Assembly (NCBI GenBank): GCA_948433435.1
Contig: CAOJDX010000002.1
Span: forward strand, 25,432-89,431
Length of the DNA stretch: 64,000 bases
Reading direction: 5' to 3'
Source of the DNA: an uncultured Clostridia bacterium
GTDB taxonomy: Bacteria > Bacillota_I > Bacilli_A > RF39 > UBA660
This document shows, one piece after another, positions 7,606 to 58,702 of the stretch. Position 1 is the first letter of the stretch. The number at the start of each line of letters is the position of its first letter. The translations under genes and the position numbers were made by a program. The notes beneath the pieces are model-generated. The model saw only the letters and a program-made list of their open reading frames with translations. It ran no database searches and had not been told where the DNA came from.

Positions 7606-10563
7606 TTATAAAACATCAACATGTTCATTTAATTGAACACTTACTAATTTAGAAACTCCTGATTCTTGCATTGTTATTCCATATAAGGTGTCTGCATATT
7701 CCATTGTCTTTTTTTTATGAGTAATAATTAAAAATTGAGTTTTATTTTTATAATGTGCTAAATACTTGCCAAAGGTTTCTACATTGGCTTCATCTAAAGC
7801 AGCTTCTACTTCGTCAAACAAGCAAAATGGTACATGTCTTATATTTAGAATTGCAAATAAGAGACTAATTGCAGTTAAGGTTTTTTCTCCACCTGAAAGA
7901 AGACTAATGGAAGACAATTTTTTTCCTGGGGGAGAGGCAATAATATCAATTCCTGTTGTTAAAATATGCTCAGGATCTGAAAGCATCAGTTTAGCATCCC
8001 CTCCTCCAAATAATTCTTTAAATACTTCAGAAAATTCTTTATTAACTGAAGTAAATGTTCGCATAAATTCTTGTTGGATAACATCGTCCATTTCATTCAT
8101 AATATCAAGAAGAGAATTCTCGGCAATTAATAGATCGTCTTTTTGACTACATAAAAATTCATATCTAGTATTTACACGTTCAAATTCTTCAATAGCATCT
8201 ATATTAACCATTCCTAATCTTTTTATGTTTGCCTTATAGGAATTTACTTTAGACCGAGCACTTTCACTATCAATATCTAGAGAATAATTTTCTCGAGCTT
8301 TTTCAAAAGTAAGAGCATATTCTTCATTTAAGGTTAATAGCATGGAATCTAATCTAACATCTAAACGATTAACTTTTACTTCTAACTCATTTTTTTCTTT
8401 TTCTAAAGTTCTAATTTCATTATTTTTTAATTTATATAGTGCTTCCTGCTCATCTATTTTCTTTTTTAATTCTTCTATTTGCTTAGTTAATATTTGAATA
8501 TCACTAATAGTTTTTTCTTTTAGATTGCTTTTTTCATAATATTGGTCTAATAAACTTTTTTCGCGATCAATAAAAGTATCATTAACAACCTCTTTCAAAG
8601 AGTTTAATTCTCTTTCAATATTTTCCAATTGAGTTTTTTCGTTATGAGTATCACTTTGTTTACCTGCCAATAATTCTTTTAACTTCGTTTGTTCTAAAGA
8701 AATGTTAAAGTATTCCTCCTCTACTTTATCAATTTCTTGATTTACCTTAGCAATTTCTTCTTGAATATTTCCTTTTTCGACTTCTTTATTAAAGATATTT
8801 TCTTTTAAAAAGTTAAGTTCTTGTTTTATGGTCATATTAGATTTACTATGACTTTTGCTATCTCCTCCAGTCATAGAACCACCAACATTAACGACATCCC
8901 CTTCTAAAGTTACAATTTTGTATCGTCTATTTATTTTCTTACTTAGTCTAGTAGCACTATCAATATCAGGGCTAACTAAAGTTAACCCTAATTGATTTTC
9001 TATAATATTTTTATAGATTTTCTCACAATGAACAATGTCGCTAAGAACACAGATAAAGTCTTCATCCTCTTGAATATTTATTAATAGCTGTTGATCCACT
9101 TTTCTAGCTTCTATAATATTTAAAGGAAAGAAGGTTGCTCTCCCTAGCCTTTCTTCTTTTAAATATTGAATGGCTTTTTTACTATCTGCTTCAGAATCAG
9201 TGATGATAAAATTGCGACAACTATTGAGACTAACTTCTAATGCTTTGGTAAATTTTTCATCAACTTCAACGATATTTCCTATAATATTGTGAATACCAGT
9301 TAATTTTTTTTCATTTAGAATTTTTTTAATTACATTAGGAAGATAAGATAGTCCCTCTAGTTCATGAGTCATAACAGTAGCTTTATTTTTTAAGCTGATA
9401 ATTTCTTGATCTATCTTAGAAAAATCAACTTGTAATAAATTTCTTTTTTGTTTTAAAGTATTTTTAGTAGAATTAATCTGATTCAATTCTTCTTCTTTTT
9501 GTTTTAAAGACTGATAAAGATCTTCTAACTTTTTTTCTAAACTACCAATACTTGCTTTTATTTTTGCCTGTTCTTCTAAAAGTCTTTTTAATTCGATTTT
9601 TTTTTCATCTTGACTAGAAGTATTTTTAGTCTTTTCTTTTAATAAAAGACGTTCACTATTCAATTTTTCTACTTCTTCTGTTATTTCTAATAATCGTTTA
9701 TTTTGAATATTCAACGTATTTTGTAAATGATCCAATTGATGATTATCTTCTAATATTTTCACATCACTATTACTAGAAGTATTACTAACTTCTAAGATTT
9801 TTTGTTCCAATCGTTCTTTTTTTTCTAGGAGAATTTTTTTCTCTTCTGAATCATTATAAATATCATAAGAAAGGAGTGCTATTTCTAGTTTTTCTAATTG
9901 TTCTTTATTTTCTAAATACTCTTTAGCTTTAATACTTTGTATTCGTAAAGGTTCAACTTGAAGTTCTAACTCGCCAATAATATCATTAATACGTGACAAA
10001 TTATCATGTGTTTTATCCAACTTTTTTAAAGCTTCTTCTTTTCTTTTTTTATATTTTAAAACTTCAGCTGCTTCTTCTATAATAAGACGTCTATCTTGAG
10101 AGGAATTAGAAAGAATCTTATCTACTTCTCCTTGACTAATAATGTTGAACGATTCTTTTCCTATTCCAGTATCTAATAATAAATTAATGATATCTTTTAA
10201 ACGACATTTCTGATGATTTATAAAATATTCATTTTCTCCACTTCTATAAGCCTTTCTTTTGATTGATACATCATTATATTCAAAATTCAGATAATGATCA
10301 CTATTATCAAAGACAAGTTCTACACTAGCAACATTCAAAGAATTTCTTGATTTACTTCCTGAAAAAATAACATCACTCATGGCCCCATCACCGCGAAGCG
10401 ATTTAACTGATTGTTCTCCAAGAACCCATCTAACAGCATCAACTACATTACTTTTCCCACTTCCATTTGGTCCGACAATACAAGTAATTTTATTATCTAA
10501 TTGAATATCCATTTTATCGGCAAAGCTCTTAAATCCTGTCGCTACTATTTGTTTCAAATACAT
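7606..10563 (-). CDS. smc: Chromosome segregation protein SMC (short form)
   Basis: It has an N-terminal FKSFADK...GPNGSGKSN Walker A, a hinge, and C-terminal LSGGEKTLTAISLLFAI...DEVEAALD signature and Walker B motifs. The start was chosen at MYLKQ, after AAGGATGA. Confidence 0.85.
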   Translation of the reverse strand: MYLKQIVATGFKSFADKMDIQLDNKITCIVGPNGSGKSNVVDAVRWVLGEQSVKSLRGDGAMSDVIFSGSKSRNSLNVASVELVFDNSDHYLNFEYNDVSIKRKAYRSGENEYFINHQKCRLKDIINLLLDTGIGKESFNIISQGEVDKILSNSSQDRRLIIEEAAEVLKYKKRKEEALKKLDKTHDNLSRINDIIGELELQVEPLRIQSIKAKEYLENKEQLEKLEIALLSYDIYNDSEEKKILLEKKERLEQKILEVSNTSSNSDVKILEDNHQLDHLQNTLNIQNKRLLEITEEVEKLNSERLLLKEKTKNTSSQDEKKIELKRLLEEQAKIKASIGSLEKKLEDLYQSLKQKEEELNQINSTKNTLKQKRNLLQVDFSKIDQEIISLKNKATVMTHELEGLSYLPNVIKKILNEKKLTGIHNIIGNIVEVDEKFTKALEVSLNSCRNFIITDSEADSKKAIQYLKEERLGRATFFPLNIIEARKVDQQLLINIQEDEDFICVLSDIVHCEKIYKNIIENQLGLTLVSPDIDSATRLSKKINRRYKIVTLEGDVVNVGGSMTGGDSKSHSKSNMTIKQELNFLKENIFNKEVEKGNIQEEIAKVNQEIDKVEEEYFNISLEQTKLKELLAGKQSDTHNEKTQLENIERELNSLKEVVNDTFIDREKSLLDQYYEKSNLKEKTISDIQILTKQIEELKKKIDEQEALYKLKNNEIRTLEKEKNELEVKVNRLDVRLDSMLLTLNEEYALTFEKARENYSLDIDSESARSKVNSYKANIKRLGMVNIDAIEEFERVNTRYEFLCSQKDDLLIAENSLLDIMNEMDDVIQQEFMRTFTSVNKEFSEVFKELFGGGDAKLMLSDPEHILTTGIDIIASPPGKKLSSISLLSGGEKTLTAISLLFAILNIRHVPFCLFDEVEAALDEANVETFGKYLAHYKNKTQFLIITHKKKTMEYADTLYGITMQESGVSKLVSVQLNEHVDVL

Positions 10564-15596: not shown

Positions 15597-18131
15597 TTAT
15601 TTTATTTTTTCCTTCAACATTTCTAACTTTTCAAGCTCTTCTTTTAACTTATTTCTATCTAAATCTACGATGTTTTTAGGAGCTTTCTTTACATAGTTTT
15701 CATTATTTAAAAGATGTTGTCTTCTAGAAATTGACTGTTCAAGTTCTTTTATTTCTTCTTTTAATGTTTCTATATCAATTTCAACCTCTTTTATAAAGTA
15801 GCTTATAGAAAGATTAGTCGATTTATAGTTAATCTCTGTATAATCAATCGGAGCCTTATCAATTAAGTATTCTTCTTTAATTTTTAATTGATTTTTAAAT
15901 AATTCAAGATATTTAGACTCGATTATAACCAAATCATCTTTTTTAATATTATTTGTTGCTTTTAAATTACGAATTTCTACAATATCATGTAAAATTCCAT
16001 CTACTAAATTCGTTTCTTCTAAAAAGACCATATCGACATCATATGTTGGATATTGACTAATCATGATAGATTCTTCTTTAATTGGTAGCATTTGATATAT
16101 TTCTTCGGTAACATAAGGCATAAATGGATGTAATAGTTTTAAAATATTAGTTAGAACTGTTAAAAGTACTTTTTTGGTAGTTAAGTTCATATTAGCTTTT
16201 GAAAGTTCAATATACCAATCACAAAATTCTTCCCAAATAAATTGATAAAGGTTATTTCCAACATGATGAAATTCATATTTATCCATATTATTTATTGTTT
16301 TTTTGATTACTTGCTCCATTTTAGTAAGAATCCATTTATCTTCAATTGATAAATCAGATAACACTAGTTCCTTTTCTTGTAGATCTTCGATATTGAGTAA
16401 AACAAAACGAGAAGCATTCCATAATTTATTAACGAAATTCCATGTGGATTTTACTTTTTCTTCATCATATCTTAAATCCATTCCAGGAGAAGAATTCGTA
16501 GTTAGAAAAAAGCGTAAACTGTCAGCTCCATATGTATCAATAACATCCATTGGGTCTACTCCGTTGCCAAGGCTTTTACTCATTTTTCTTCCTATCTTAT
16601 CTCGAATTAAACCATGAATAATGCAATCTTTAAAAGGTCTTTTATTGGTAAATTCTAATCCCTGGAAAGTCATTCTATTTACCCAAAACGGAATAATATC
16701 ATATCCTGTTACGAGAACATTATTAGGGTAAAATCTTTGTAATAGATCATTATCATTTGGCCAACCTAATGTGGAAAATGGCCATAGAGCAGAACTAAAC
16801 CAAGTGTCTAGAACGTCGGGATCTCGCTCCCAACCGTCACCAGTTGGTTCTTCTTCTCCAACATATACCTCTTCTCCACGGTACCAAGCGGGAATTTGAT
16901 GACCCCACCATAATTGACGAGAAATACACCAGTCATATGTAATTTCCATCCAATGGTTCATTACCTTTTCGTATCTTTCAGGTACGAAATGAACTTTGGT
17001 CTTTTCATTTTTTTGATTTTCTAATACCCGATCGGCAAGAGGTCGCATTTTAACAAACCATTGCTTGGATAGATAAGGTTCTATTACAGCATCACTTCTT
17101 TCAGAATGTCCTACTGTATGAGTCATTTCTTCAATTCTAATTAAAAGTTCCTTTTGTTGTAATTCCTCTAAAAGTTTTTTTCTACATTCATAACGATCCA
17201 TTCCAACATAGTGACAAGCATTTTCATTCATTGTAGCATTTGGATGCATGATTACTACTCTTGGAAGATTGTGTCTTACTCCAACTTCATAATCATTAGG
17301 GTCATGAGCGGGAGTTATTTTTACAACACCTGTTCCAAATTCAGGATCAGCATGAATATCACCAACAATAGGAATTTTTTTACCAACGATTGGAAGAATA
17401 ACATTTTTTCCAATTAAATGTTTATATCTTTTGTCAGTAGGATTAACAGCAACGGCGGTATCTCCAAATAATGTTTCTGGTCGAGTCGTTGCAATATCTA
17501 AAAATTCGTCACTATCTTCAAGGTAATATTTTAAGTGATAAAAGGCTCCCTTATCTTCTTTATAAATAACTTCCTCATTAGAAAGAGCAGTCATTTGTAC
17601 AGGATCCCAATTAATAATTCTTTCTCCGCGATAAATTAGTCCTTTTTTATATAGAGTAACAAAAACATGATTAACTGCTTTACTTAAGCCTTCATCTAAC
17701 GTAAATCTCTCCTTTGAATAATCGAGACTTAAACCTAGCTTAGCCCATTGGTTATGAATTGTTTCGGCATATTCTCCTTTCCAACTCCAAGCAGCCTTTA
17801 GCCATTCTTCCCGGCTCATATCACGAGGATTAATCCCCTTGTCTCTTAACCTTTTATCTACCTTGGCTTGTGTAGCAATTCCTGCATGATCCATCCCTGG
17901 AAGCCAAAGTGCATCATAGCCTTGCATTCTTTTATAACGAATGATAATATCTTGAATTGTTGTATCCCAAGCGTGTCCTAGGTGAAGTTTTCCTGTTACA
18001 TTTGGTGGTGGAATTACAATACAAAAAGGTTCTTTTGATTGATCAACATTTGCCTTAAAATATTCCTTTTCCTTCCAAATATTATATTTATTTTTTTCTA
18101 CTTCTATGTGATTATATTTTTTCTCTAACAT
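15597..18131 (-). CDS. valS: Valine--tRNA ligase
   Basis: It has the class I HIGH motif ([14 protein letters not shown]) and KMSKS, plus an editing domain and a C-terminal coiled coil. Confidence 0.95.
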
Positions 18132-18630
18132 ACTTTTTTTCCTTTACCTTTTGTTTAAAATGATTCAAACTATGTACTAAGTGTGCATTATAAATCTTAT
18201 CATTAAGTATAGCTATCGCCTCATCTAAAGGCATTATTTTAGGCTCAAACTTTTCCCCTAACCTTTTTATAGGAGCTATTGTTTTTTGCCACTCATTCTC
18301 CAAATTAATTGCACAGCAATAATAATCACGAATCACTTTTAAATATACTTTTTTTAATTTATTATTTTTTCTTTCTAATTCTAAATAATAATTGATTACT
18401 TGTAAAAATTGTTCCACTTGATCTTCCAAAGCAGAAATACCTGTTATTTGGCAAACTTGATGGAAAAATTCATTATCCGATTTTGTTTCAATTGTAGGTA
18501 AATGGAGTTCACCCTGTCTTTGATATATTAATATTTCATTATTTCCATTGTAAAAAAGCATATTCTTTTTTACTTTAGATCTGGTAGCTAAATTTTGGTA
18601 TTCTTTACCAGATAAAATTATTGTTTCCAT
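18112..18630 (-). CDS. Hypothetical protein between the T-box leader and valS
   Basis: It is a 172-aa ORF with AAGGAG 8 nt upstream of its ATG, and it overlaps the valS start by 20 nt. Confidence 0.5.
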
Positions 18631-18654: not shown

Positions 18655-18885
18655 AGTAAAAAACTATCCATCCTATAAGGACGAATAGTTTCGTGGTACC
18701 ACCTTAATTAATAGATTAGAAAATCTACCTCAAGTTTGATAACGGAATTCTCCGGATATATATCGGCTCCGTTGCAACATTCAATATTTATTTATAACTA
18801 TTTTCACCAATCATAGTCTCTCTTTAATAAATCAAATATTTACTCCTCAACTTCATCGCTTGTGTTCTTATTATAAAATATTACT
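18655..18885 (-). ncRNA. T-box riboswitch leader (Val specifier GUU)
   Basis: The minus strand carries an AGAGAG bulge, a distal loop, aGUUA in the specifier position, the F-box CCGUUA, the T-box AATTAAGGTGGTACCACG and a terminator hairpin (aaactattcgtcc...ggatggatagttt) followed by a T-run. Confidence 0.7.
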
Positions 18886-22729: not shown

Positions 22730-22843
22730 CTATTCAAAGTTTCACCATACTATAAGTAAAATGTTTTATCATTTTTAGCACTCTGTATTGACAACTGCTA
22801 AAAATAGTGGTATAACATATTTATGAAAGGAAAGGTGATATAT

Positions 22844-23224
22844 ATGTTACCAAGAAGATTTTATCTTGATGATGTAATTGATTCTTTAATGGAAAGTGAA
22901 AAAAGTGGAATGAAATGTGATATTTATGAAAAGAATAACACTTATTTTGTAGAATTAGATTTACCAGGTTACCAAAAAGAAGATATCAAAATTGAGTGTA
23001 ATAAGGGAAATTTAATTATATCATGTGAAAAACAACACGAAGAACATGATGAGGCAAAAAAATATATTCGTCGTGAAAGAAGTTATGGAAAATATTCTAG
23101 AAGTTTATATCTAGGTGATATTGATCAAAATAATATTGATGCAGCATTTCATAATGGAACTTTAACTATCACTATTCCAAAAATTGATGAAGAAAAAAAT
23201 AAAAAATATATAGATATTAAATAA
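22844..23224 (+). CDS. Hsp20/alpha-crystallin small heat-shock protein
   Basis: It has an alpha-crystallin domain (YFVELDLPGYQKEDIKIE...GTLTITIPK). The start was chosen at MLPRR, after AAAGGTGA. A terminator hairpin follows at 23228-23262. Confidence 0.85.
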   Translation: MLPRRFYLDDVIDSLMESEKSGMKCDIYEKNNTYFVELDLPGYQKEDIKIECNKGNLIISCEKQHEEHDEAKKYIRRERSYGKYSRSLYLGDIDQNNIDAAFHNGTLTITIPKIDEEKNKKYIDIK

Positions 23225-23333
23225 GATATCATGATGAAAATCATGGTATTTTTTTATTATCATCCCCTTTCTATTGTTGTGATCCTTAGTAATATAAGGT
23301 ATAATATAATTACTATAAAAAGGAGATTATTTT

Positions 23334-26300
23334 ATGTTAGTTAGGTTTAAAAAAGTGATTAATAATTTACTAAAATTTCATACTACTCAACCCTTTGCTA
23401 ACATAATTAGAGAAAACTATCAATCCATTATTCAGAATTTAGATACCTCTAAAAATTTTCAGAAAAGGCCTATTTATCAATGTGTGTATGATTATCTTAT
23501 CCAGTATGATTATCTTTTGATCGAAAAAGAATTGATTGACTTTATCAATTCCTATCAAGAAAAAAAGAATTATCATTTTCAGTATCAAGAAATCAATCAG
23601 ATTAAAAAAGTTAGTAGACAACTATTAACTAAGCAATTAATGTTGTTAGTAAATGAACAATATCTCTGCTTAATGGAAGAAACAAAAATTAGAAATGCCA
23701 TAAAAAAATTGAAGCAAAATCGGGATATTTCTCTTAATAGATATTATTTGGTAACAGAAAACACCTCTAATCAATCTATTTTTCTTTTAAATCAAGAAAT
23801 CGAGAAGTTAAATAACGAAAAAGTTTTTAGGACCTTTGATCTTACATTACAAAGTCATGGAAAAGAACTTTCTCCAATTTTAGCAGAAGTTAAGAAAACG
23901 GAAATCTTAAAGATTTATTTGTTAAATAATATTATTCATAGCTTTCAAGAAATAAGTGATTTTAAATTACATCATTTTTATCAAAAAAATATTGATCTTG
24001 AAAAATTACTAAATAAAGATCATATCTATTCTTTAATGACAGAAGAAAGTAAACAGTATTATAGAAAAAAAATATTAAAGAAAAGAAGACCCTTTGTATA
24101 CTTAGAAAACCATTTAAAGGAAAAAAAACATATTGGTTTTTTTCTATTTCAACATTCACATTATTTATTTTCTTTAGATTACAAAAATCGTGATATTCCT
24201 AATACTAGTAAGACTATGATAAATCTTTCACAGTTTTTTTCTAATAAAGAGCAGATCGATCTATTTTTTAAAGAATTAGAGAAAAATATTGCTCCTAATA
24301 TTTATTTTAATATCATCAATGAAAATCTTACTTTGGAAGAAGAGCTTGTTAATTATCTAGAAAAAAAATGTCGCATATTGAATAAAAGTCAAGAAGTGGT
24401 TCAAGTTTACCAGAAGAATCAAAAAATAGTATATTCTAAAAATATAAAGTATGTCCTTTCCCTTTATGCCGTTTCCAAAATAGAAATAGATAAAATTAAA
24501 TATTTACTTGGAATTATGGATCATCCTCTTAATCTAAGTATAATGGACAGGAAGAGAAAAGAACTTAATGGTACTGCTCTACTTTTATTACAAGTTTTTA
24601 ACGAAAATGAATGTAGTTTATTTAACAGACTTTATCAAAAAGAGCAAATGTTATTAGGGCAAAACGAGTTTTATCGATTAAAAGAATATACAACATTAAA
24701 CAGAACTTTTTTGCACGATCAGTGTTTAAAAAGGAAGTTTTTAAAAGCAAAATATATAAAAAATATTATCTTTCATAGTAATCATTCCCCTACTTTTAAT
24801 CATTATTTAAAAAACTATCAAAAATTTTTAAAGAAAAATATATATAACTTAAAAAATAGTTCTTGGCAACAAAAAATACTAATTTTATCACAATTCAAAA
24901 AAGAATTCATTTATTTTTTCTTTTTACTCACTATAATTATTTTTCCTTCTTGGTTCTTATTTAGTGTACAATTTATCTGTCTTCTTGTTTGGCATCATTC
25001 CAATCATTTTTTATCTTCCTTTTTGAAAGCATTTAATGAATATACAAATATACCTACTTATCTTTCTCTACTTATTACTAAAAGGTATTATTCAAAACAG
25101 TACTTTTTCAATATAGGAATCGGAATTCTTCTTTTATTACAAAATAATCTTGTTGGTTTTATCTTTATTTTATCTCTTCCTCTACTATTTTTTATGAATA
25201 AAGTTAAGGAAAGTAAAAACGAGAAAATTGATCAACTTGCAAAAGAAAATCTCTCTAAAAAACAAAATTATGCTATTCCTAATATGGCTATTTTATCTAA
25301 TCAAAATATTTCTTTGTATATCGATAAAGAAGAAAATTCTACCTGTATCTATCATCATTTTAAAGTAAGTACTATAAATTATAAAAAAGATATTTCCTTA
25401 ATTGATTTAGATCTTTGTAAAGAACTTGAAGTGATCGATTCGACAATTTCTTTTGATAACAATAGAGTAAAAATAACAAAAACATATCAAGATATTCAGG
25501 CTATCATCGAACCTGTCATTTCTCCCTTACATGATGTAGAAATTAAAAAAATCACATTGCAAAACAATAGTAAAAAAAGAAAGAAGATTTTATGCAAAAT
25601 ATACTTTCCCTATGAAATAGATGAAAAGTTATTAGATGATTCTTGTTTAACTATAAAAAAAGAAAAGCATAATCTTTATGTTACAGCATATTTTTTAGGT
25701 GGTAACAGTGATTACTCGATTCTTAATACTTTGACTAATACTCAAAAGATAGCTGCTTACCAGCAAAAAGAAATTTATTTCATTACAACTTTTTCAAAAA
25801 AATTAGAGAAAAAGGAAGTTCTACATCTTTATCATAGTCCTTTTAAATTTTCTTCATTTTATGCTTTAATCAAAAAGGAGGAAAATTCTATTCATCATCT
25901 TCTTTTAAGTTATCTTTGGCAAATTAATAAATTTAAACTTAATGAGGCTAGGGAAAAACTACTTACATATAATTATTTGTCAACAAAGGAATTACAAAAA
26001 TTCGGAATTACAGAAAACATTCCTATTATCTTATTAGATTTAAAAAACAGTTCTCAAAAAACTCTCATTAAAGAAATTATTTTATTTTTTAAATATTGTA
26101 AATTGAATCACTTTATAGTTCATTTAATTATTCTTAATGGTGTTGATCAGCAATATATTGAAGAGCTTGTGTATCATATTAACCAGGAAAATAGTAGTTT
26201 GACAAAAATTCCTGGAAGTATTTATCAGATTAATGAGCAAGAATTAACTCCTGATGAAATCATTTTATTCTATACTTTATCATACTTAACGATTGATGCT

Positions 26301-28115
26301 TCTAATTATTCTTCTTTAAAAAATTATGTACAAATGATGAGCGATAAAATATCCATAGCTGAACATTCCCCTATTAAAATTAAAAAAAGTTTGCCTATTT
26401 CTTTTGTGGAGGAGATGAATAATTTTAAAGATCAAACTAATATCTATGATGCTAAAAATAAAGAATATTTAATTTTTAATCAAACCAACGAGAATGTTTT
26501 TTCACATATCTTTACCTCTCCCACTTCTTTAAAAACAGTTACCAATCTTAGAGCAAAAAGTTATACCTATTTAGATTCTCAAATTAGGTTATCCTCTAGA
26601 GAAGAGATATTAGTCAACCATTCTAAAATTTCATTTGCTGTTGTCAAATACGGGCTAGGATATACTTCTTATTTAGCCAAAACAAAAAAATTGGAAATAA
26701 CAATGACAGAATTTATCTCTTACTTTGAAAAGATAAAATTTTATCAATTAAAGATTAAAAATATCAGCAACGATGATTTAAAACTATCTCTACAATATAT
26801 TATTCATCCTATTCTGTCAGAAAATATTCTAAATAGTGAGCGATATATTTTATGTAAATATGACTATAAGAAAAATTTAATTACTCTGCAAAACAAACTA
26901 AATTCATATTTTTTAGAAAACACCTGTTTCATTACTTGTACAGAAAAAATTGCCAAAGTTCAATTACATGACCCTGTACAAAAAACAATAGAAATCAAAA
27001 AAAATATTTTTAAAGATTCTTCCTGTGAATTTGCCTTTACTTTAGGAATAACAAATTCCAGTCATTTAGATTATTTAAAGGAAAAATATTCCACTATTTC
27101 TACTATTAATACTGCCCTTGCTATCAGTATCAATTATTTTAAAACCATTTTAAATACTGTAACAGTTCAAACTAATGATGAAAAATTCAACCAAATGATG
27201 AATCACTTTTTATTATATAAAACAGTTACTGAAAAAGTGTTTCAACAAGATGATTTTGTTAGTTTAAAACATTGTTGTACTATTATAAATATTTTACCTA
27301 ATGTTGTAAAAGATGTAATTATTAATTGTGCTAAAAAGCCTCTAAAAGGTGAAGAAATATTTGATTTAATTCATGCTGTTTATGTTTATATTATTAAAAC
27401 TGAACAAAAAGAAATTTTAACGGAATTGATTAATGAACATATTATTCTTTATTATATATTAGAGAAAAATCTTCAACGTTTTATTGATGAAGAGCACAAC
27501 CCATATCATGTATATGAAACAATAAAATTCTTTATTGAAATTATCAAAATTTATGACAAAAAAATTGACACCACTTCTTACTTGCAAAAATTAACTATAT
27601 TTAAAAGAAAAATTGAAGAAAAAGTGCCTACTAATTTAATAGATGAGACTTACAAAATATTAATAGATGCAAAACATGAAGACGAAAAAATATATTGTTC
27701 TAAATATATGCCAAAAGATTTTTTTAAGCAAGAATTTCTTTTTCTGCAGTTATTGTTAAAACAAAAAAGTTATGATTTACTGTATTATCATTACCAAAAT
27801 ATGATTCTCCCCAATCAACAAAATAGGAATTTACTTAATCAATATGCTGGAAATTTTTATCAAATGGGTTTAGAAGAAATATTAGGTTTTCAAAAAAAAG
27901 GAATAAAATTATATATATCTCCACATCTTCCATCCTCTATTAAGGATTATCAAATTACCTATCGTTACTTAAATACACTTTATCACATTAATATCATTCT
28001 TCAGCATAAAGAAAATAAAATTATGATAGACAACTACAAGATAACTACTGATTACATAGAATTAAAAAATGATCATAAAACTCATGAAGTGCTTATTTAC
28101 AAGAAAAGAAAATAG
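23334..28115 (+). CDS. Giant hypothetical protein (1593 aa) with a central transmembrane cluster
   Basis: It is an uninterrupted 4.8-kb ORF in an AT-rich genome with a good RBS. Hydrophobic helices lie at about aa 520-620. No confidently recognisable catalytic motif was found. A terminator hairpin follows at 28108-28135. Confidence 0.6.
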   Translation: MLVRFKKVINNLLKFHTTQPFANIIRENYQSIIQNLDTSKNFQKRPIYQCVYDYLIQYDYLLIEKELIDFINSYQEKKNYHFQYQEINQIKKVSRQLLTKQLMLLVNEQYLCLMEETKIRNAIKKLKQNRDISLNRYYLVTENTSNQSIFLLNQEIEKLNNEKVFRTFDLTLQSHGKELSPILAEVKKTEILKIYLLNNIIHSFQEISDFKLHHFYQKNIDLEKLLNKDHIYSLMTEESKQYYRKKILKKRRPFVYLENHLKEKKHIGFFLFQHSHYLFSLDYKNRDIPNTSKTMINLSQFFSNKEQIDLFFKELEKNIAPNIYFNIINENLTLEEELVNYLEKKCRILNKSQEVVQVYQKNQKIVYSKNIKYVLSLYAVSKIEIDKIKYLLGIMDHPLNLSIMDRKRKELNGTALLLLQVFNENECSLFNRLYQKEQMLLGQNEFYRLKEYTTLNRTFLHDQCLKRKFLKAKYIKNIIFHSNHSPTFNHYLKNYQKFLKKNIYNLKNSSWQQKILILSQFKKEFIYFFFLLTIIIFPSWFLFSVQFICLLVWHHSNHFLSSFLKAFNEYTNIPTYLSLLITKRYYSKQYFFNIGIGILLLLQNNLVGFIFILSLPLLFFMNKVKESKNEKIDQLAKENLSKKQNYAIPNMAILSNQNISLYIDKEENSTCIYHHFKVSTINYKKDISLIDLDLCKELEVIDSTISFDNNRVKITKTYQDIQAIIEPVISPLHDVEIKKITLQNNSKKRKKILCKIYFPYEIDEKLLDDSCLTIKKEKHNLYVTAYFLGGNSDYSILNTLTNTQKIAAYQQKEIYFITTFSKKLEKKEVLHLYHSPFKFSSFYALIKKEENSIHHLLLSYLWQINKFKLNEAREKLLTYNYLSTKELQKFGITENIPIILLDLKNSSQKTLIKEIILFFKYCKLNHFIVHLIILNGVDQQYIEELVYHINQENSSLTKIPGSIYQINEQELTPDEIILFYTLSYLTIDASNYSSLKNYVQMMSDKISIAEHSPIKIKKSLPISFVEEMNNFKDQTNIYDAKNKEYLIFNQTNENVFSHIFTSPTSLKTVTNLRAKSYTYLDSQIRLSSREEILVNHSKISFAVVKYGLGYTSYLAKTKKLEITMTEFISYFEKIKFYQLKIKNISNDDLKLSLQYIIHPILSENILNSERYILCKYDYKKNLITLQNKLNSYFLENTCFITCTEKIAKVQLHDPVQKTIEIKKNIFKDSSCEFAFTLGITNSSHLDYLKEKYSTISTINTALAISINYFKTILNTVTVQTNDEKFNQMMNHFLLYKTVTEKVFQQDDFVSLKHCCTIINILPNVVKDVIINCAKKPLKGEEIFDLIHAVYVYIIKTEQKEILTELINEHIILYYILEKNLQRFIDEEHNPYHVYETIKFFIEIIKIYDKKIDTTSYLQKLTIFKRKIEEKVPTNLIDETYKILIDAKHEDEKIYCSKYMPKDFFKQEFLFLQLLLKQKSYDLLYYHYQNMILPNQQNRNLLNQYAGNFYQMGLEEILGFQKKGIKLYISPHLPSSIKDYQITYRYLNTLYHINIILQHKENKIMIDNYKITTDYIELKNDHKTHEVLIYKKRK

Positions 28116-28586
28116 GTTTTCTCCTATTTTTTTATTGTCTTAATAAAATAATATTATTAAAATCAGTACAATACTAACAAGATAAATAATTCCCAATTTT
28201 TTATATAATGGAATAAAGTATTCTTTTTCTTCCTCTTCAAAAAAATAATCTACTATTTTATTCATTACTACTCACCTTTTTTCTAATATATGTTACTCCA
28301 TAAAAAAAGCACTCATTAGTGCATATATATAAAACAGTAAATGTTCTTTTAATTCCCATACTTATTCATTAATATACTGCAATAATACTACTCTTTTTAT
28401 TCGATATTTCAAATAAACCATATCATAGTATTTAAGTAATTTATGACTTTGGACTAAAAAGCCTAAAAAATAGACTCTTATTATATTTCTAAGGTCTAAA
28501 AAGTATCTTTTAGGGACAACTTCAAGCTTTTATTCAAAATAAGTGGTATAATTTATTCATAATCATGAAGGAGAAGTAGTAGCCTA

Positions 28587-29240
28587 ATGAAAATTGTAGT
28601 AATTGAAAATAATCATAATTTTAATAAATTAATATGTAAATATCTTAATCAAATTTTAATTGATAGAAATCTAGAATGGGATATTGTACCATTTTTTAAT
28701 TATAATGATGAATTAAAAAATATTATTCATGACAATGAAATTAAAATATACATTATCGATATTAAATTAGGAGGATCTTATTCTGGATATGATATTTGTA
28801 GAGAAATAAGGGAATCAGCTTATGATTGGGATAGTATCTTAATTATATCATCCATTCATAATCAAAAGGAAAATTTTATTACCTTAAGACTAGCCATTTT
28901 TACTTATTTATCAAAATATTATAACTTCGAGAATAATTTAAAGGATACAATTGTTCATGCTGTTAATATATTAGAACAGAGAAAGTTTCTAAGAATCAAT
29001 AAAAGTTGTCGAATTTCTATTAATGATATTTGTTATATCTTAAAAGAAAGAAACAGTAAATACTGTTATATTAAAACTTTAGATGATCATTTTAGGATCA
29101 GGAAATCATTAAAAAGTTTAGAAGCTGATTTAAAATTAAGAAAAGTAAAGGGTTATCTTTTAGTTAATGATAGAAATATCAAATCAACACATAGAGATAA
29201 AATTATTTTTGAAAATAAAATAAAAATTAAGATAGATTAG
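28587..29240 (+). CDS. LytTR-family response regulator (orphan)
   Basis: It has an N-terminal receiver-like domain (IIDIKL) and a C-terminal LytTR DNA-binding domain. No histidine kinase gene is adjacent. Confidence 0.7.
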   Translation: MKIVVIENNHNFNKLICKYLNQILIDRNLEWDIVPFFNYNDELKNIIHDNEIKIYIIDIKLGGSYSGYDICREIRESAYDWDSILIISSIHNQKENFITLRLAIFTYLSKYYNFENNLKDTIVHAVNILEQRKFLRINKSCRISINDICYILKERNSKYCYIKTLDDHFRIRKSLKSLEADLKLRKVKGYLLVNDRNIKSTHRDKIIFENKIKIKID

Positions 29241-29339: not shown

Positions 29340-29693
29340 CTAATTATTTTTAATTTTTTCTTGATAATACTTAAATAATTCTTTAAATCTATTATAGTGA
29401 ACAATTTCTCTTTGCCTAAGCCATAATAATGGACCTATTACATCAGCATCTTCTGCTAAATCAATTAAGTTTTCATAAACTGCTCTAGCTTTTTGTTCTG
29501 CTGCCATATTCTCAGAAATGTCAGCTAGTGGATCGCCAGTAGTAGCAAAATATGTTGTTGTAAAAGGTACTCCATTGGCATCTGTTGGGAATAAAGCTCT
29601 ACTATGTTCCGCATAATGAGGATCAAGTCCAGCTTCCTTTATTTCTTCTATTGTAGCATCCTTCATTAATTGATAAACCATAGTTGAAATCAT
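29340..29693 (-). pseudogene. cotJC: cotJC 3' fragment (Mn-catalase-family spore coat protein, C-terminal part), split by prophage insertion
   Basis: The translation (QYCKN)ELAHVEMISTMVYQLMKDATIEEIKEAGL... continues exactly where the 60904..61110 fragment stops (...LLTDIGTEEL). There is no RBS or start of its own. Confidence 0.8.
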
Positions 29694-29729
29694 TTCTACA
29701 TGAGCTAATTCATTTTTACAATACTGTTA

Positions 29730-31898
29730 TCAGTCAAAGGGCAATAAAATAATATCAATAGTGAAATTTTCTTTTAAATAGCGGCCTCCATGGTCTTTTT
29801 TATATATAATTTTCTTAATTATTGTAGATAATAATTCGTTTTTTTCTTCGGCTGTCATTTCTGGAGTATAACTACTTAAAACATCTTCTAATATAGGTAT
29901 AGCCTTTTTCTTGCTAGTAAATTCATGAGCTATATTATTTATGTTAGGCAACTCTTGTTTTTGATTTAATAATGCTTCTAACTGATTATTTAAAACATCT
30001 ATTCTTTTTTTAAAAAGTTCTTTAGTATATGCTCCAGCTTCTACTAATTCACAGGCTTTCTCAATTTGTGCGTTTACTTTGTCAATTTCATTGTCTATTA
30101 CCTGTATAACTTCTTTGTTATTATTTATTTCTTTTTGTACTGCTTCTTTGTAATTATCAATATATAATTTATAATCTTCTTTTATTGATCTTAATGTTTG
30201 TAATATTTTACTTTCCACTAATTCTAAATCGCTTGAAACACACTTACATCTAGGGCGACTACACATAAGAGTATCGGCGTGCGCTGGCGTTATACTTTCT
30301 TCTAATGTAGTTACTGCTTTATCAAACTCTGTAGTTTCTATATTCAATAATTTCTTTAGATCTTCCCATTTATTAGCGTATGGCATGGTAAATTTATCGT
30401 CATTACTAGCAAACCAATGATCTACGCAGCATTTAGATACCTTTAAGGATCTAGCTATATCGTTTAGACTATAGTCTCCTTTATGTTCTCGAAGTAATAA
30501 TCTTAACTTAGTCTTATTAACTTCGTAAACTCGTTTTACTGTAGGTTTTGTGTCTTTTCTTATATAGTATGGTCGTCTCGTCATATTATTACCGCAATAC
30601 CCACAAACAACTAAACCAACAAGAGGGTTTTTTAATTCTTTCTCGTCTGGAACAGTTTTAACTCGATTACTTAAAAATTTTTCTTGTATTCTACTACGAT
30701 ATTCTTCATTTAAAATACTATTTTTGTAATGTTTACCTTTTACGAATAAATAATCATTATTATTAGGGTTTTTTCTTACAATTTTACCATTTACTAAAGT
30801 TGTAACAGTTTTTCGTCTGTCCCAAGTTAAATAGCCGTATATAGTTGGACTTTGTAATATATTTCGTATCATATTGGCCGTCCACTCTTTAGCTTTTCTA
30901 GGAGTGATTTTAAGGTAGTTAAAATAGTGTGCTATGTTTGTTGGTCTCATATCGTCAATAATTATTTTAATTGTTTCTCCAGGGTTAAAAATATCGTTAG
31001 GTATATGTATATGATCTATTTTTATATGATAAGCAGCTGATATACTCTCTAATGTATCATTTTCTTGTAATGTATAATCAACACTTTTACTATCTACCGT
31101 AAGTTTTATATCATAACCAATTTTTAAATCTAAATTATGAGTAATTATTACTTTTTTATGAGTACCAAAAGTTTTAGCTATTGTAGATACCGTATCATTT
31201 TCTTTTACTATGTAAGTAGTATTAAGACCGTCCAAAAATAAATCAGCCATAAGTCTAACTACTTTAGCCTCCGACTCATTTTCAACTAACATAAAACCTT
31301 TTTCGTTAGGTATTTTTATTTTATTAGATCCATAAGGAAGCACAGAGCCCACATAATTACCTTCTTTAACGCTTCTTACACGCCCACGAGATAATATTCT
31401 TTTGGTATATTTTAAGTATTTTCTTGACTGATATAAGCCGTCTTCAAAATAGGAAAGATCATCTTCATTGTCAAGATCATAAATTTTCATAGGAGTTACT
31501 ATTTTTGTACCAGTATACTTAAATGTTTGAGCTATGATACCCTGGTCTATAGTGTTACCACGTGCTAGACGTTCTATTTCAATACATATAACGCCTTTTT
31601 TATCGTCGTTTTCTATTATAGATAATACTTCTTGCATTACTGGACGATTTTCGATAGTGTCTCCAGACGCAACCTCTCTATAGATATTATGCTCTGGTAT
31701 AGGTTTACCGAAAATACTTATAATAAAGTCCTGTAAGTCTTTTTCATGACGTTGTAATGTTTTTTCTATAGACTCGTCTTTAAAATAGTCCATATCTTTA
31801 CGTGATTTTCTTAAGTATATTATTAACATATCTAGTATTTCATCTATAGATAGATTACTAGGTATATGTAAAATTCTTAAAAATGTATCTAAATTCAT
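29730..31898 (-). CDS. Large serine recombinase (SpoIVCA/SprA-like integrase)
   Basis: It has an N-terminal resolvase catalytic domain (YLRKSRKD...IERLARG) and long recombinase and zinc-ribbon/coiled-coil domains. Its stop codon lies inside the attL arm. Confidence 0.9.
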   Translation of the reverse strand: MNLDTFLRILHIPSNLSIDEILDMLIIYLRKSRKDMDYFKDESIEKTLQRHEKDLQDFIISIFGKPIPEHNIYREVASGDTIENRPVMQEVLSIIENDDKKGVICIEIERLARGNTIDQGIIAQTFKYTGTKIVTPMKIYDLDNEDDLSYFEDGLYQSRKYLKYTKRILSRGRVRSVKEGNYVGSVLPYGSNKIKIPNEKGFMLVENESEAKVVRLMADLFLDGLNTTYIVKENDTVSTIAKTFGTHKKVIITHNLDLKIGYDIKLTVDSKSVDYTLQENDTLESISAAYHIKIDHIHIPNDIFNPGETIKIIIDDMRPTNIAHYFNYLKITPRKAKEWTANMIRNILQSPTIYGYLTWDRRKTVTTLVNGKIVRKNPNNNDYLFVKGKHYKNSILNEEYRSRIQEKFLSNRVKTVPDEKELKNPLVGLVVCGYCGNNMTRRPYYIRKDTKPTVKRVYEVNKTKLRLLLREHKGDYSLNDIARSLKVSKCCVDHWFASNDDKFTMPYANKWEDLKKLLNIETTEFDKAVTTLEESITPAHADTLMCSRPRCKCVSSDLELVESKILQTLRSIKEDYKLYIDNYKEAVQKEINNNKEVIQVIDNEIDKVNAQIEKACELVEAGAYTKELFKKRIDVLNNQLEALLNQKQELPNINNIAHEFTSKKKAIPILEDVLSSYTPEMTAEEKNELLSTIIKKIIYKKDHGGRYLKENFTIDIILLPFD

Positions 31899-57512: not shown

Positions 57513-57637
57513 TCATTAAATTCCTTACACATCATTTTCCTTAGCGCTTGCTAAAAATTAGTCGTTCTGGGTGGGTTTAGTAGGTTTATTCTCGAAAAAC
57601 TCGCAGGCAAATATAAAAATTATAAGGACCAGGAAAT

Positions 57638-58702
57638 ATGAAAAGAACAGGTAACATTTATCAAAAAATCATAGAATTAAGCAATATTGAAGCAGCTATT
57701 TATAAAGCTAGCAAAGGTAAAGGAAATCGTAAGAGTGTTGAAAAAATACTCGACTCTCCTACATATTACGCTTTACAGATACAAAAAGCATTACAAAATA
57801 AAACGTACAGGCCTAGTCCATACGTTGAAATGAAAATACACGACGGAGCTAATAAGAAGGAACGTATTATTTATAAACCACACTTCTACCCAGATCAGAT
57901 AGTACACTGGGCGTTAATGCTTCAATTAGAGCCTTTACTTATGAAAGGTATGTATGAGTTTTGCTGCGCTAGTGTTAAAGACCGCGGTATTATGCGTGGT
58001 ATGAGACATATTAAAAAGATCTTAGTACAAGATCGTAAGTATACTAAATATTGTTTAAAGCTTGATATTAAGAAGTTTTACCCTAGTATTGATAAGCAGA
58101 TACTGAAAAATAAATTTCGTAGGATCTTAAAAGACAAAGATACTCTTAATCTTATAGACCTTATTATTGATAGTGGTATCGAAGGTATACCTATCGGAAA
58201 TTTCACGAGTCAATGGTTTGCGAATTTTTATTTACAGGATCTCGATCATTTTATAAAAGAACACTTAAAAGTAAAATATTACGTGCGTTATATGGACGAT
58301 ATGGTATTATTTTCTAACAACAAAAAAGAATTACGAAAAATCAAAATAGAAATCGACAATTTTCTAAGTAAAGAAAAGCTAACGATAAAAGAAAATTGGC
58401 AGCTTTTCAAAACTGAGTCTAGGCCTCTTGATTTCTTAGGTTATCGCTTCTATCGTGGGTATACTACTCTTAGAAGAAGTAATTTCTTAAGAATTAAGAG
58501 GCGTGCGAAGAAAATGAGTAAGAAAGATCACATAACTTTCCACGACGCCGCAGCTATGATTAGTTATAGCGGCTGGCTAAAACATTGTAACTCTTATAAT
58601 TATCAACAGAAGTACATAAAACCGTATGTAAATTATAAATTGTGTAAGGAGGTTATAAGAAATGAAAGTAAAAAAGACAGAAAGCACAATAAGACCACTT
58701 AA
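57638..58702 (+). CDS. DGR reverse transcriptase
   Basis: It has the RT motifs including YVRYMDDMVLF (YxDD) and the DGR-specific IPIGNFTSQWFANFYL (I/LGxxxSQ), which closely resembles the bRT of Bordetella phage BPP-1. Confidence 0.9.
   Translation: MKRTGNIYQKIIELSNIEAAIYKASKGKGNRKSVEKILDSPTYYALQIQKALQNKTYRPSPYVEMKIHDGANKKERIIYKPHFYPDQIVHWALMLQLEPLLMKGMYEFCCASVKDRGIMRGMRHIKKILVQDRKYTKYCLKLDIKKFYPSIDKQILKNKFRRILKDKDTLNLIDLIIDSGIEGIPIGNFTSQWFANFYLQDLDHFIKEHLKVKYYVRYMDDMVLFSNNKKELRKIKIEIDNFLSKEKLTIKENWQLFKTESRPLDFLGYRFYRGYTTLRRSNFLRIKRRAKKMSKKDHITFHDAAAMISYSGWLKHCNSYNYQQKYIKPYVNYKLCKEVIRNESKKDRKHNKTT

Follow-up and report, generated by a model that had tools for sequence, protein, structure and literature searches.

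In a 64,000-nucleotide stretch of DNA from an uncultured Clostridia bacterium (hereafter the window; contig CAOJDX010000002.1 of assembly GCA_948433435.1, positions 25,432 to 89,431 of the forward strand), a gene of 1593 codons lies downstream of hsp20 and upstream of a gene encoding a response regulator with a LytTR domain. Both neighbours had been named correctly in the original prediction for this locus, which was made from the sequence alone and which described the gene as an orphan. The frame runs from ATG to TAG without an internal stop, and the other five frames over the same interval contain 132-183 stops each. From the gene's own base composition, in which a stop is expected in 9% of codons (about 1 per 11), the probability that 1593 codons remain stop-free is about 4e-66. 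The earlier statement that so long a frame is very unlikely by chance therefore stands with its 1593 open codons, but the G+C content of the gene is 24.0%, below the figure of about 28% quoted then. A ribosome-binding site (RBS), GGAG, is located 9-12 nt 5' of the ATG, and the N-terminus, the RBS and the -10 box of the gene are kept among its relatives. The gene is a reduced descendant of a bacterial cyclic beta-1,2-glucan enzyme (Cgs), as revealed by profile, sequence and fold comparisons.

A Pfam analysis of the 1593-aa protein detected PF06165 (GH94 supersandwich) on residues 1103-1206 (E=6e-13, 49.3 bits vs a cut-off of 23), within the C-terminal stretch of about 950 residues previously regarded as free of motifs. 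PF17167 (GH94 catalytic domain) remained below threshold (14.7 bits vs a cut-off of 27), PF10091 (cyclase) had no Pfam match in the protein, and a search of the protein against NCBIfam gave no match. Comparison by phmmer with the structures of AtCgs, the Cgs of A. tumefaciens (8rf0 and 8rf9), returned six weak segments that are collinear from the N-terminal domain (NTD) to the C-terminus, and the best PDB sequence match of the supersandwich region is AtCgs 2148-2247. An exhaustive HMMER search yielded 322 relatives at E<=1e-3. A word-indexed protein search retrieved a 99% identical copy, a 1322-aa relative with 37% identity and a dozen proteins of about 2550 aa. The latter (P0003-P0014), which contain PF10091 (cyclase/GH144-like), PF06165 and PF17167, represent the full-length Cgs type in low-G+C Bacillota. 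P0003, which has every known motif, matches AtCgs at E=1e-67 over the GT84 domain and at 3e-137 over the GH94 domain. A third word-indexed search, using the family alignment as query, found nothing beyond the proteins already recovered, and two pattern scans of GTDB species genomes, with peptide patterns that are poor for such a search, found no relative of either the window's protein (denoted Q in sequence comparisons) alone or the alignment of Q with the 1322-aa relative, P0002.

The fold comparisons led to the same family. AlphaFold2 (AF2) models of residues 1-660 and 640-1593 had pLDDT (predicted local distance difference test) values of 82 and 85 and pTM (predicted template-modelling) scores of 0.74 and 0.76, respectively. 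The best structural matches in the PDB for both halves are the cryo-electron microscopy structures of AtCgs, with a TM-score (TMq) of 0.69 (E=2.5e-13) for the N-terminal half and of 0.77 (E=1e-42) for the C-terminal half. After AtCgs, the C-terminal half matched GH94 phosphorylases in Foldseek (E 1e-25 to 1e-28), and the N-terminal half matched BcsA and hyaluronan synthase. The protein is thus not an orphan: a profile match to a well-known family, which the original prediction had named as grounds for its refutation, was obtained.

A domain map of the protein (Table 1) was built from hidden Markov model (HMM) blocks and E-INS-i alignments, with the full-length P0003 as reference; E-INS-i alignments were used in place of hmmalign in local mode, which lost the N-terminal half. 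The order NTD, GT84, transmembrane (TM) region, GP1, RFL, GP2, helical domain and C-terminal sandwich is collinear with that of Cgs, and the cyclase module is missing. The NTD is modelled as helical, with pLDDT mostly >85 and a fold like that of AtCgs. TM helices 1-2 (P0003 307-369) have been deleted. The membrane region comprises two long, hydrophobic, hairpin-like stretches, and the TM cluster formerly placed at residues 520-620 is borne out by Kyte-Doolittle peaks at residues 534-552 and 594-612 and by AF2 helices at 488-622. The cyclase domain is wholly deleted, P0003 ~720-1320 being without counterpart; HMM positions 576-1403 (about 830) are unmatched beyond the membrane segment of about 280 aa. 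GP1 (residues 648-821, aligned with P0003 ~1327-1546) is the least conserved part and has been removed in frame in P0002. The block best conserved against the full-length relative, Q794-1309 with P0003 1546-2093, takes in GP2 and RFL, the latter a subdomain defined in the structural study of AtCgs (PMC10901819). GP2 is among the most conserved parts (mean identity of 0.54 to three orthologues; dN, nonsynonymous substitutions per site, 0.27 vs dS, synonymous, 1.8). The helical barrel has lost about half of its length (about 370 HMM positions against about 196 aa). The C-terminal block (residues 1499-1593) is 41% identical to P0003 2445-2547, and the C-terminal sandwich is the most conserved part among orthologues (0.59). 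The two large soluble parts are homologous to portions of Cgs that lie in the cytoplasm. A role at the surface or in secretion, as once suggested, finds no support: besides this homology, the N-terminus does not resemble a signal peptide, and the membrane hairpins are two or four in number.

Table 1. Positions of the reduced gene, its domains and other features in the window
Feature	Position	Strand	Residues	Basis or remark
Reduced cgs-derived gene	23334-28115	+	1-1593	ATG to TAG
NTD scaffold, all-helical	23334-24161	+	1-276	HMM positions 46-315 of full-length family, E=2.9e-31; P0003 1-307
Eroded GT84 fold	24162-24833	+	277-500	P0003 ~369-676; tested catalytic motifs all lost
Membrane region, remnant of post-GT (glycosyltransferase) TM helices	24834-25208	+	~501-625	Weak alignment to P0003 692-718
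GP1 beta-sandwich, first GH94-type N-terminal subdomain	25287-25796	+	652-821	AF2 strands, model residues 13-182; P0003 1327-1462
RFL (Rossmann-fold-like) subdomain	25809-26348	+	826-1005	AF2 alpha/beta segment, model residues 187-366
GP2, GH94 supersandwich	26376-27056	+	1015-1241	PF06165; within P0003 1546-2093
Shrunken helical remnant of GH94 (alpha/alpha)6 barrel	27057-27881	+	1242-1516	Active site removed; AF2 still helical
GH94 C-terminal beta-sandwich	27888-28103	+	1519-1590	Conserved block
hsp20	22823-23224	+		Pfam HSP20, E=1.6e-22; conserved upstream neighbour, separate transcription unit
Likely intrinsic terminator after hsp20	23226-23258	+		Hairpin and T-run, read from sequence
Candidate sigma-A-type promoter, TTGTGA-17-TATAAT	23277-23305	+		Consensus scan
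Receiver and LytTR response regulator	28587-29240	+		Pfam Response_reg and LytTR; downstream neighbour
Small membrane ORF (probable)	28140-28265	-	1-41	Between gene and regulator
Inverted repeat upstream of hsp20	22775-22801	+		Overlaps TTGACA-17-TATAAC promoter-like site
T-box leader	18674-18865	-		127.9 bits
172-aa ORF	18112-18630			Precedes valS
cotJC, first part	29340-29711	-
cotJC, second part	60914-~61110	-
Siphovirus-like prophage	29712-60913			31.2 kb
Large serine recombinase	29730-31898	-	722 aa	LysM motif; left end of prophage
RT-18 RNA and reverse transcriptase	57542-58702	+	354 aa (reverse transcriptase)	After tail genes

The catalytic sites of the ancestral enzyme have been lost from all modules. 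In the GT84 domain of AtCgs, D527 and D624 coordinate UDP (uridine diphosphate), D739 is the catalytic base, R586, R776 and the RW motif (R773) are further elements of the site, and the IF1h loop bears the autoglucosylated primer tyrosine Y694 (PMC10901819). The cyclase/transglycosylase domain, GH189, uses a Glu nucleophile and a Glu acid/base (PMC10834661). With the AtCgs numbering checked by way of P0003, D527 is replaced by E in the window protein, the GWERKRG segment with R586 is deleted, the DxD motif D624/D626 reads Y378-A-V380, and the RW motif is absent. The catalytic-base motif SHD739LLEG has become LHDQCLK, which is not conserved by the orthologues, and both the window protein and its orthologues have lost the IF1h loop with Tyr694 (P0003 586-607, GGFDPYSN). 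From the GH94 domain, RDQLQD (D2393) and GGGDWND (with the catalytic acid, D2528) are deleted, and both the phosphate-site motif RENGGQYTH and GGWTWYTGSA are deleted or unrecognisable. These losses are common to the window protein and its orthologues, and P0003, P0007, P0010, P0012 and P0014 retain all of the motifs; the full-length P0004, which lay outside this motif comparison, has DAG at the DxD position.

The 1593-aa protein hence lacks every catalytic feature by which membership of Cgs, GT84, GH189 or GH94 is recognised, and in place of the six TM helices of Cgs only the post-GT hydrophobic region remains. Since the ancestral motifs are all lost, the protein is not a glucan synthase by the known mechanism. 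The suggestion of a glycan-processing machine was loosely right as to ancestry, but active processing is unlikely, as all tested ancestral catalytic motifs are substituted or deleted. The gene agrees with the operational definition of a pseudoenzyme (catalytic residues lost under purifying selection) and departs from that of a pseudogene, its frame being intact in the window and its amino acid sequence constrained. Two further relatives have also lost catalytic motifs. P0147 (1941 aa; L012 8001-13826) has lost the DxD motif and has no cyclase domain, with DFTY instead of DWND in a complete GH94 fold, and P0159 (1430 aa) consists only of an NTD and a complete GH94 fold with DFIE instead of DWND. 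Both branch apart from the reduced clade, which suggests independent inactivations; the partial loss in P0004 is apparently independent as well.

Reduced proteins are encoded at the same pta-hsp20 locus in several related, uncultured Onthousia-like Bacilli and are orthologues. The valyl-tRNA synthetase of the host is 76% identical to that of Candidatus Onthousia (Bacilli incertae sedis), and spore-coat genes are present. The pair pta-hsp20 lies 5' of the gene at loci L001, L008, L009 and L010/L011. The gene order at L008 and L009 is valS-HD-CDF-...-pta-hsp20-gene-small ORF-LytTR regulator-cotJB/cotJC-Na/Ca exchanger-XFP; at L001 it is valS...pta-hsp20-gene, and at L010/L011 XFP...pta-hsp20-gene. 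A check of neighbourhood conservation, as originally recommended, thus found the pta-hsp20 locus common to related lineages, but the adjacency to the LytTR regulator gone in L010. In L010/L011, a phosphoglucomutase gene lies two genes downstream of the reduced gene, on the opposite strand, with a gene for a UvrD-type helicase between them.

The orthologues differ in length. P0139 (L008; 1584 aa, 47% identity) has the architecture of the window protein, and L009, an ENA contig, has two adjacent ORFs, P0141 and P0140, into which gene callers divide the orthologue, with products of 779 and 684 aa. P0002 (L001; 1322 aa, 37-38% identity) has lost GP1, and P0149 is a reduced form of 1435 aa. In P0143, P0145 and P0155 (about 1235-1278 aa), some 210 aa of the NTD are joined straight to GP1, and neither a GT fold nor a hydrophobic segment was found in these three proteins (Kyte-Doolittle KD19 maximum <=1.4). 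Of these, P0145 (L010/L011 8001-11708, NCBI assemblies) is a soluble protein of 1235 aa with about 30% identity, encoded at the same pta-hsp20 locus. In a neighbour-joining tree of RFL, GP2 and C-terminal columns, the strongly reduced forms group in a single clade, separate from the full-length proteins. All orthologues have the deletions in common; therefore, catalysis was lost in a single old event, which was followed by lineage-specific trimming. The result is a series of natural deletions with lengths of 1593/1584, 1322 and about 1235 aa, of which the shortest member is soluble. What all orthologues retain is the front part of the NTD together with RFL, GP2, the helical remnant and the C-terminal sandwich.

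The comparisons of coding sequences indicate that the gene is under purifying selection, although it evolves fast. Between the window and L008/L009, the gene product is 45-47% identical, as against 75-79% for pta, 90% for hsp20 and 76% for the regulator. By the Nei-Gojobori method, the proportions of differing synonymous (pS) and nonsynonymous (pN) sites of the gene in these pairs were 0.66-0.67 (near saturation) and 0.32-0.33, respectively, with a dN/dS of about 0.25 or lower. GP2 and the C-terminal sandwich had ratios of about 0.15, whilst those of GP1 and the linkers were 0.3-0.45 and those of three neighbour genes 0.08-0.17. In each domain pN (0.22-0.43) was below pS (0.62-0.73). Further, frames of 1235-1593 codons are open in at least four diverged lineages at a stop probability of 9% per codon, and selection therefore must have maintained them.

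Breakage of the frame in relatives had been named as a sign that would undermine the gene; the frame is intact in L008, L001 and L010, and L009 has one in-frame TAA (8698-8700), near the GP1/RFL boundary, in a frame of 1571 codons that is otherwise open. After the TAA, this frame stays open for 107 codons to the start of P0140 and then through P0140 to the normal end, which indicates that the TAA either arose very recently or is a sequencing error. Alternatively, this lineage may make the two halves separately. Recoding of the stop as in TGA codons was ruled out, as the codon is TAA.

Several observations weigh against a gene kept by selection. Its divergence is two to three times as fast as that of the neighbouring genes (37-51% vs 68-94% amino acid identity), and the orthologue in L009 contains the nonsense codon just described. 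In the only within-species comparison, that with the 99% identical strain, there are 8 nonsynonymous and 2 synonymous differences, a ratio that suits neutrality better than a dN/dS of 0.25 (our own binomial estimate, P ~0.05). In addition, lineages have dropped different parts, GP1 in P0002 and the GT fold with the TM region in P0143, P0145 and P0155, so that GP1, the GT fold and the membrane anchor are each dispensable in some lineage. The same rapid divergence, nonsense codon, strain differences and unequal domain losses, together with the disappearance of all catalytic motifs, would be expected of a relic in slow decay, the function of which went with the catalytic domains and which happens not to be broken yet in this strain. 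Such decay is nevertheless unlikely: pN remains well below the saturated pS in every domain, frames of 1200-1600 codons persist in at least four diverged lineages, the L009 frame continues after its TAA to the normal end, the N-terminus, RBS and -10 box are conserved, and AF2 predicts a confident and compact fold.

The loss of ancestral motifs would also be compatible with an enzyme that has acquired a new active site, to which those motifs are blind. The predictions still show a GT-A-like alpha/beta fold and what is left of the helical barrel, the window protein has His-Asp at the position of the catalytic base (in LHDQCLK), and all relatives share an HPLN motif that follows the former DxD. 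The His-Asp pair is, however, not kept in P0139, P0141 or P0002; the Asp residues that coordinate UDP are missing, as are the RW motif and the gating region, and the barrel has lost about half of its length, including the -1 subsite and the phosphate-site motifs. Moreover, soluble orthologues do without the GT fold, and hence the conserved function is not seated there. We regard a new active site as very unlikely. It is likewise hard to credit that the protein serves as a non-catalytic regulator or scaffold partner of a full-length Cgs, or of another glucan enzyme, encoded elsewhere in the genome. AtCgs forms a back-to-back dimer via its C-terminal domain, the presence of which is required for function in a non-catalytic manner (PMC10901819), and the parts retained in the window protein are those that make inter-domain contacts. 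On the other hand, a full-length cgs or other beta-1,2-glucan gene is absent from the 64-kb window and the syntenic contigs, and none occurs within 20 kb near valS on a related 1.5-Mb contig.

The gene thus probably encodes a dead enzyme that is kept by selection for a non-catalytic role. Synthesis, cyclisation and phosphorolysis of beta-1,2-glucan would be impossible at any of the ancestral sites, and the protein would then act by binding. The chemistry lost comprises the GT motifs and the loop with the primer tyrosine, together with the entire cyclase domain and the active site of the phosphorylase; the skeleton retained consists of the NTD scaffold, a hollowed GT fold, a reduced membrane region, a platform of GP1, RFL and GP2, and, after these, the shrunken helical domain and the C-terminal sandwich. 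The NTD of AtCgs holds the glucan primer that is linked to Tyr, a 'glucan-binding landscape' extends from RFL across GP2 to GP3, and the C-terminal domain is needed even when the catalytic Asp is mutated (PMC10901819). By analogy, the likeliest residual activity of the dead enzyme would be to bind, on the cytoplasmic side of the membrane, a beta-glucan oligomer or other oligosaccharide, or else a partner protein; the shortest forms would do so in the cytosol. This specific role is a doubtful proposal, and it counts against it that the glucan-binding idea comes solely from analogy with AtCgs surfaces. Equally tentative is a wider scenario in which an uncultured, small-genome clade of gut Bacilli would have made Cgs non-enzymatic and trimmed it stepwise at one locus, from a membrane form of 1590 aa through one of 1320 aa without GP1 to a soluble form of about 1240 aa, leaving a core that may be a new cytoplasmic glucan- or partner-binding module. 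Sensing or sequestering of beta-glucan oligomers, or a stress-related role beside hsp20, would be examples of the biology of such a core. If this stepwise trimming is true, the natural deletions of the series would map the Cgs parts that form a self-sufficient scaffold.

The transcriptional context of the gene was deduced from conservation. Scans for promoters and terminators in such A+T-rich DNA gave no more hits than expected from shuffled sequence, and the statements made here rest on conservation at four loci. A TATAAT-like -10 box occurs at the same distance from the RBS at all four orthologous loci, and L008, L009 and L001 have a hairpin and T-run of different sequence at the same place after hsp20. 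The gene, with its own TATAAT-like box and GGAG and with the hairpin after hsp20 at the four loci, therefore forms a separate transcription unit. Co-transcription with hsp20 was judged unlikely on account of the hairpin and T-run found at all four loci. Upstream of hsp20 itself lies an inverted repeat, TTAGCACTC-N9-AACTGCTAA, that is similar to the CIRCE operator of HrcA. The consensus of this operator is TTAGCACTC-N9-GAGTGCTAA, of which the right arm of the hsp20 repeat matches 7/9; hsp20 may be controlled by HrcA.

The regulator downstream has Pfam scores near the cut-offs (receiver 30.0 vs 30.2 bits; LytTR 25.8 vs 22.6 bits), and it has an acceptor-like Asp58, Ser88 and Lys110; it is 76% identical in L008 and L009, where Asp58 is kept. 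No kinase gene was found near it. The adjacency of gene and regulator is kept in three lineages, inside a long block of conserved gene order. The two genes are separated by about 470 bp, which include a small ORF on the opposite strand, and the regulator is missing beside the orthologue in L010/L011. Because of this general synteny, the gap and the loss in L010, the adjacency is not evidence of a functional pair. Neither Pfam nor NCBIfam revealed a HisKA/HATPase kinase domain in the 1593-aa protein, and pairing of a sensor kinase with the regulator was rejected for want of such a domain and of adjacency in L010. The product of the small ORF, of 41 aa (MNKIVDYFFEEEEKEYFIPLYKKLGIIYLVSIVLILIILFY), is acidic at its N-terminus and contains a single hydrophobic helix. 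Membrane ORFs of 40-41 aa occupy the same position between gene and regulator in L008 and L009, and the ORF is probably a real small membrane protein. Farther upstream, a T-box leader precedes a 172-aa ORF and valS. The L001/L008 counterparts of this ORF carry PF01966 (HD), and the leader is consistent with tRNA-Val-sensing control of an operon of the two genes.

Beyond the regulator, the spore-coat Mn-catalase gene cotJC is interrupted by a siphovirus-like prophage, with junctions at 29711/29712 and 60913/60914 that share the core AATTC. The prophage contains genes for terminase, portal, major head protein, tape measure, tail proteins and a GH25-LysM endolysin. On the L002 contig, from a 99.8% identical strain, the site is empty and cotJC is intact. 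The cotJC prophage resembles elements of the skin/SPbeta type, which interrupt sporulation genes and are cut out again in the mother cell. Within the prophage, an RNA matching Rfam RT-18 (58.7 bits) lies directly 5' of a gene for a reverse transcriptase (PHROG 1423, E=1e-112; Pfam RVT_1). This unit is probably a diversity-generating retroelement that targets a tail protein.

Cgs is a virulence and symbiosis factor, and an understanding of its non-catalytic parts (NTD, RFL and the 'glucan-binding landscape') is only beginning. A lineage that keeps these parts and drops all three catalytic centres provides evidence, independent and evolutionary, for a value of the scaffold in itself, and the small soluble versions (about 1240 aa) could be expressed for glucan-binding assays. 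The deletion series should be useful to specialists in beta-1,2-glucan enzymology, without overturning current understanding. For annotation, recognition of the reduced forms guards against labels such as 'hypothetical' and against the erroneous 'cellobiose phosphorylase' or 'glucan synthase'.

Among known systems, Cgs/NdvB/ChvB is the closest, since the surviving modules follow in the same order and both halves have their best sequence and fold matches there. The window protein differs in size (1593 aa vs about 2550-2830 aa), in the deletion of TM1-2, the IF1h Tyr loop and the cyclase, and in the substitution or deletion of the GT84 and GH94 catalytic residues; Cgs has six TM helices around its GT domain, whereas TM1-2 are lacking here. 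The full-length Cgs-like proteins of Bacillota (P0003-P0014), with which the CGS of Thermoanaerobacter italicus is comparable (PMC10834661), are the closest full-length relatives, with 22-30% identity over the shared parts and similarly A+T-rich hosts. They differ in that the tested GT84/GH94 motifs are kept, PF10091 is present in all, and the gene contexts are other. At two of the three full-length loci examined (L004 8150-9346 and the P0010 contig), pgi, encoding glucose-6-phosphate isomerase, directly follows the gene and overlaps or abuts its stop; this link is absent from the reduced genes. With GH94 glycoside phosphorylases, the protein shares the arrangement of N-terminal sandwich, supersandwich, helical domain and C-terminal sandwich, but it is without the catalytic Asp, the RD motif and the phosphate-binding motifs, and has an RFL insert and a long N-terminal extension. 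A literature search for catalytically dead Cgs homologues returned no paper describing any. As in pseudoenzymes in general, the fold is kept, the catalytic residues are lost and purifying selection is detectable; it is unusual that three catalytic modules of one multi-domain machine have been inactivated or removed and the scaffold has been kept. The reduced proteins are thus a pseudoenzyme lineage derived from a well-studied machine, and not a new class.

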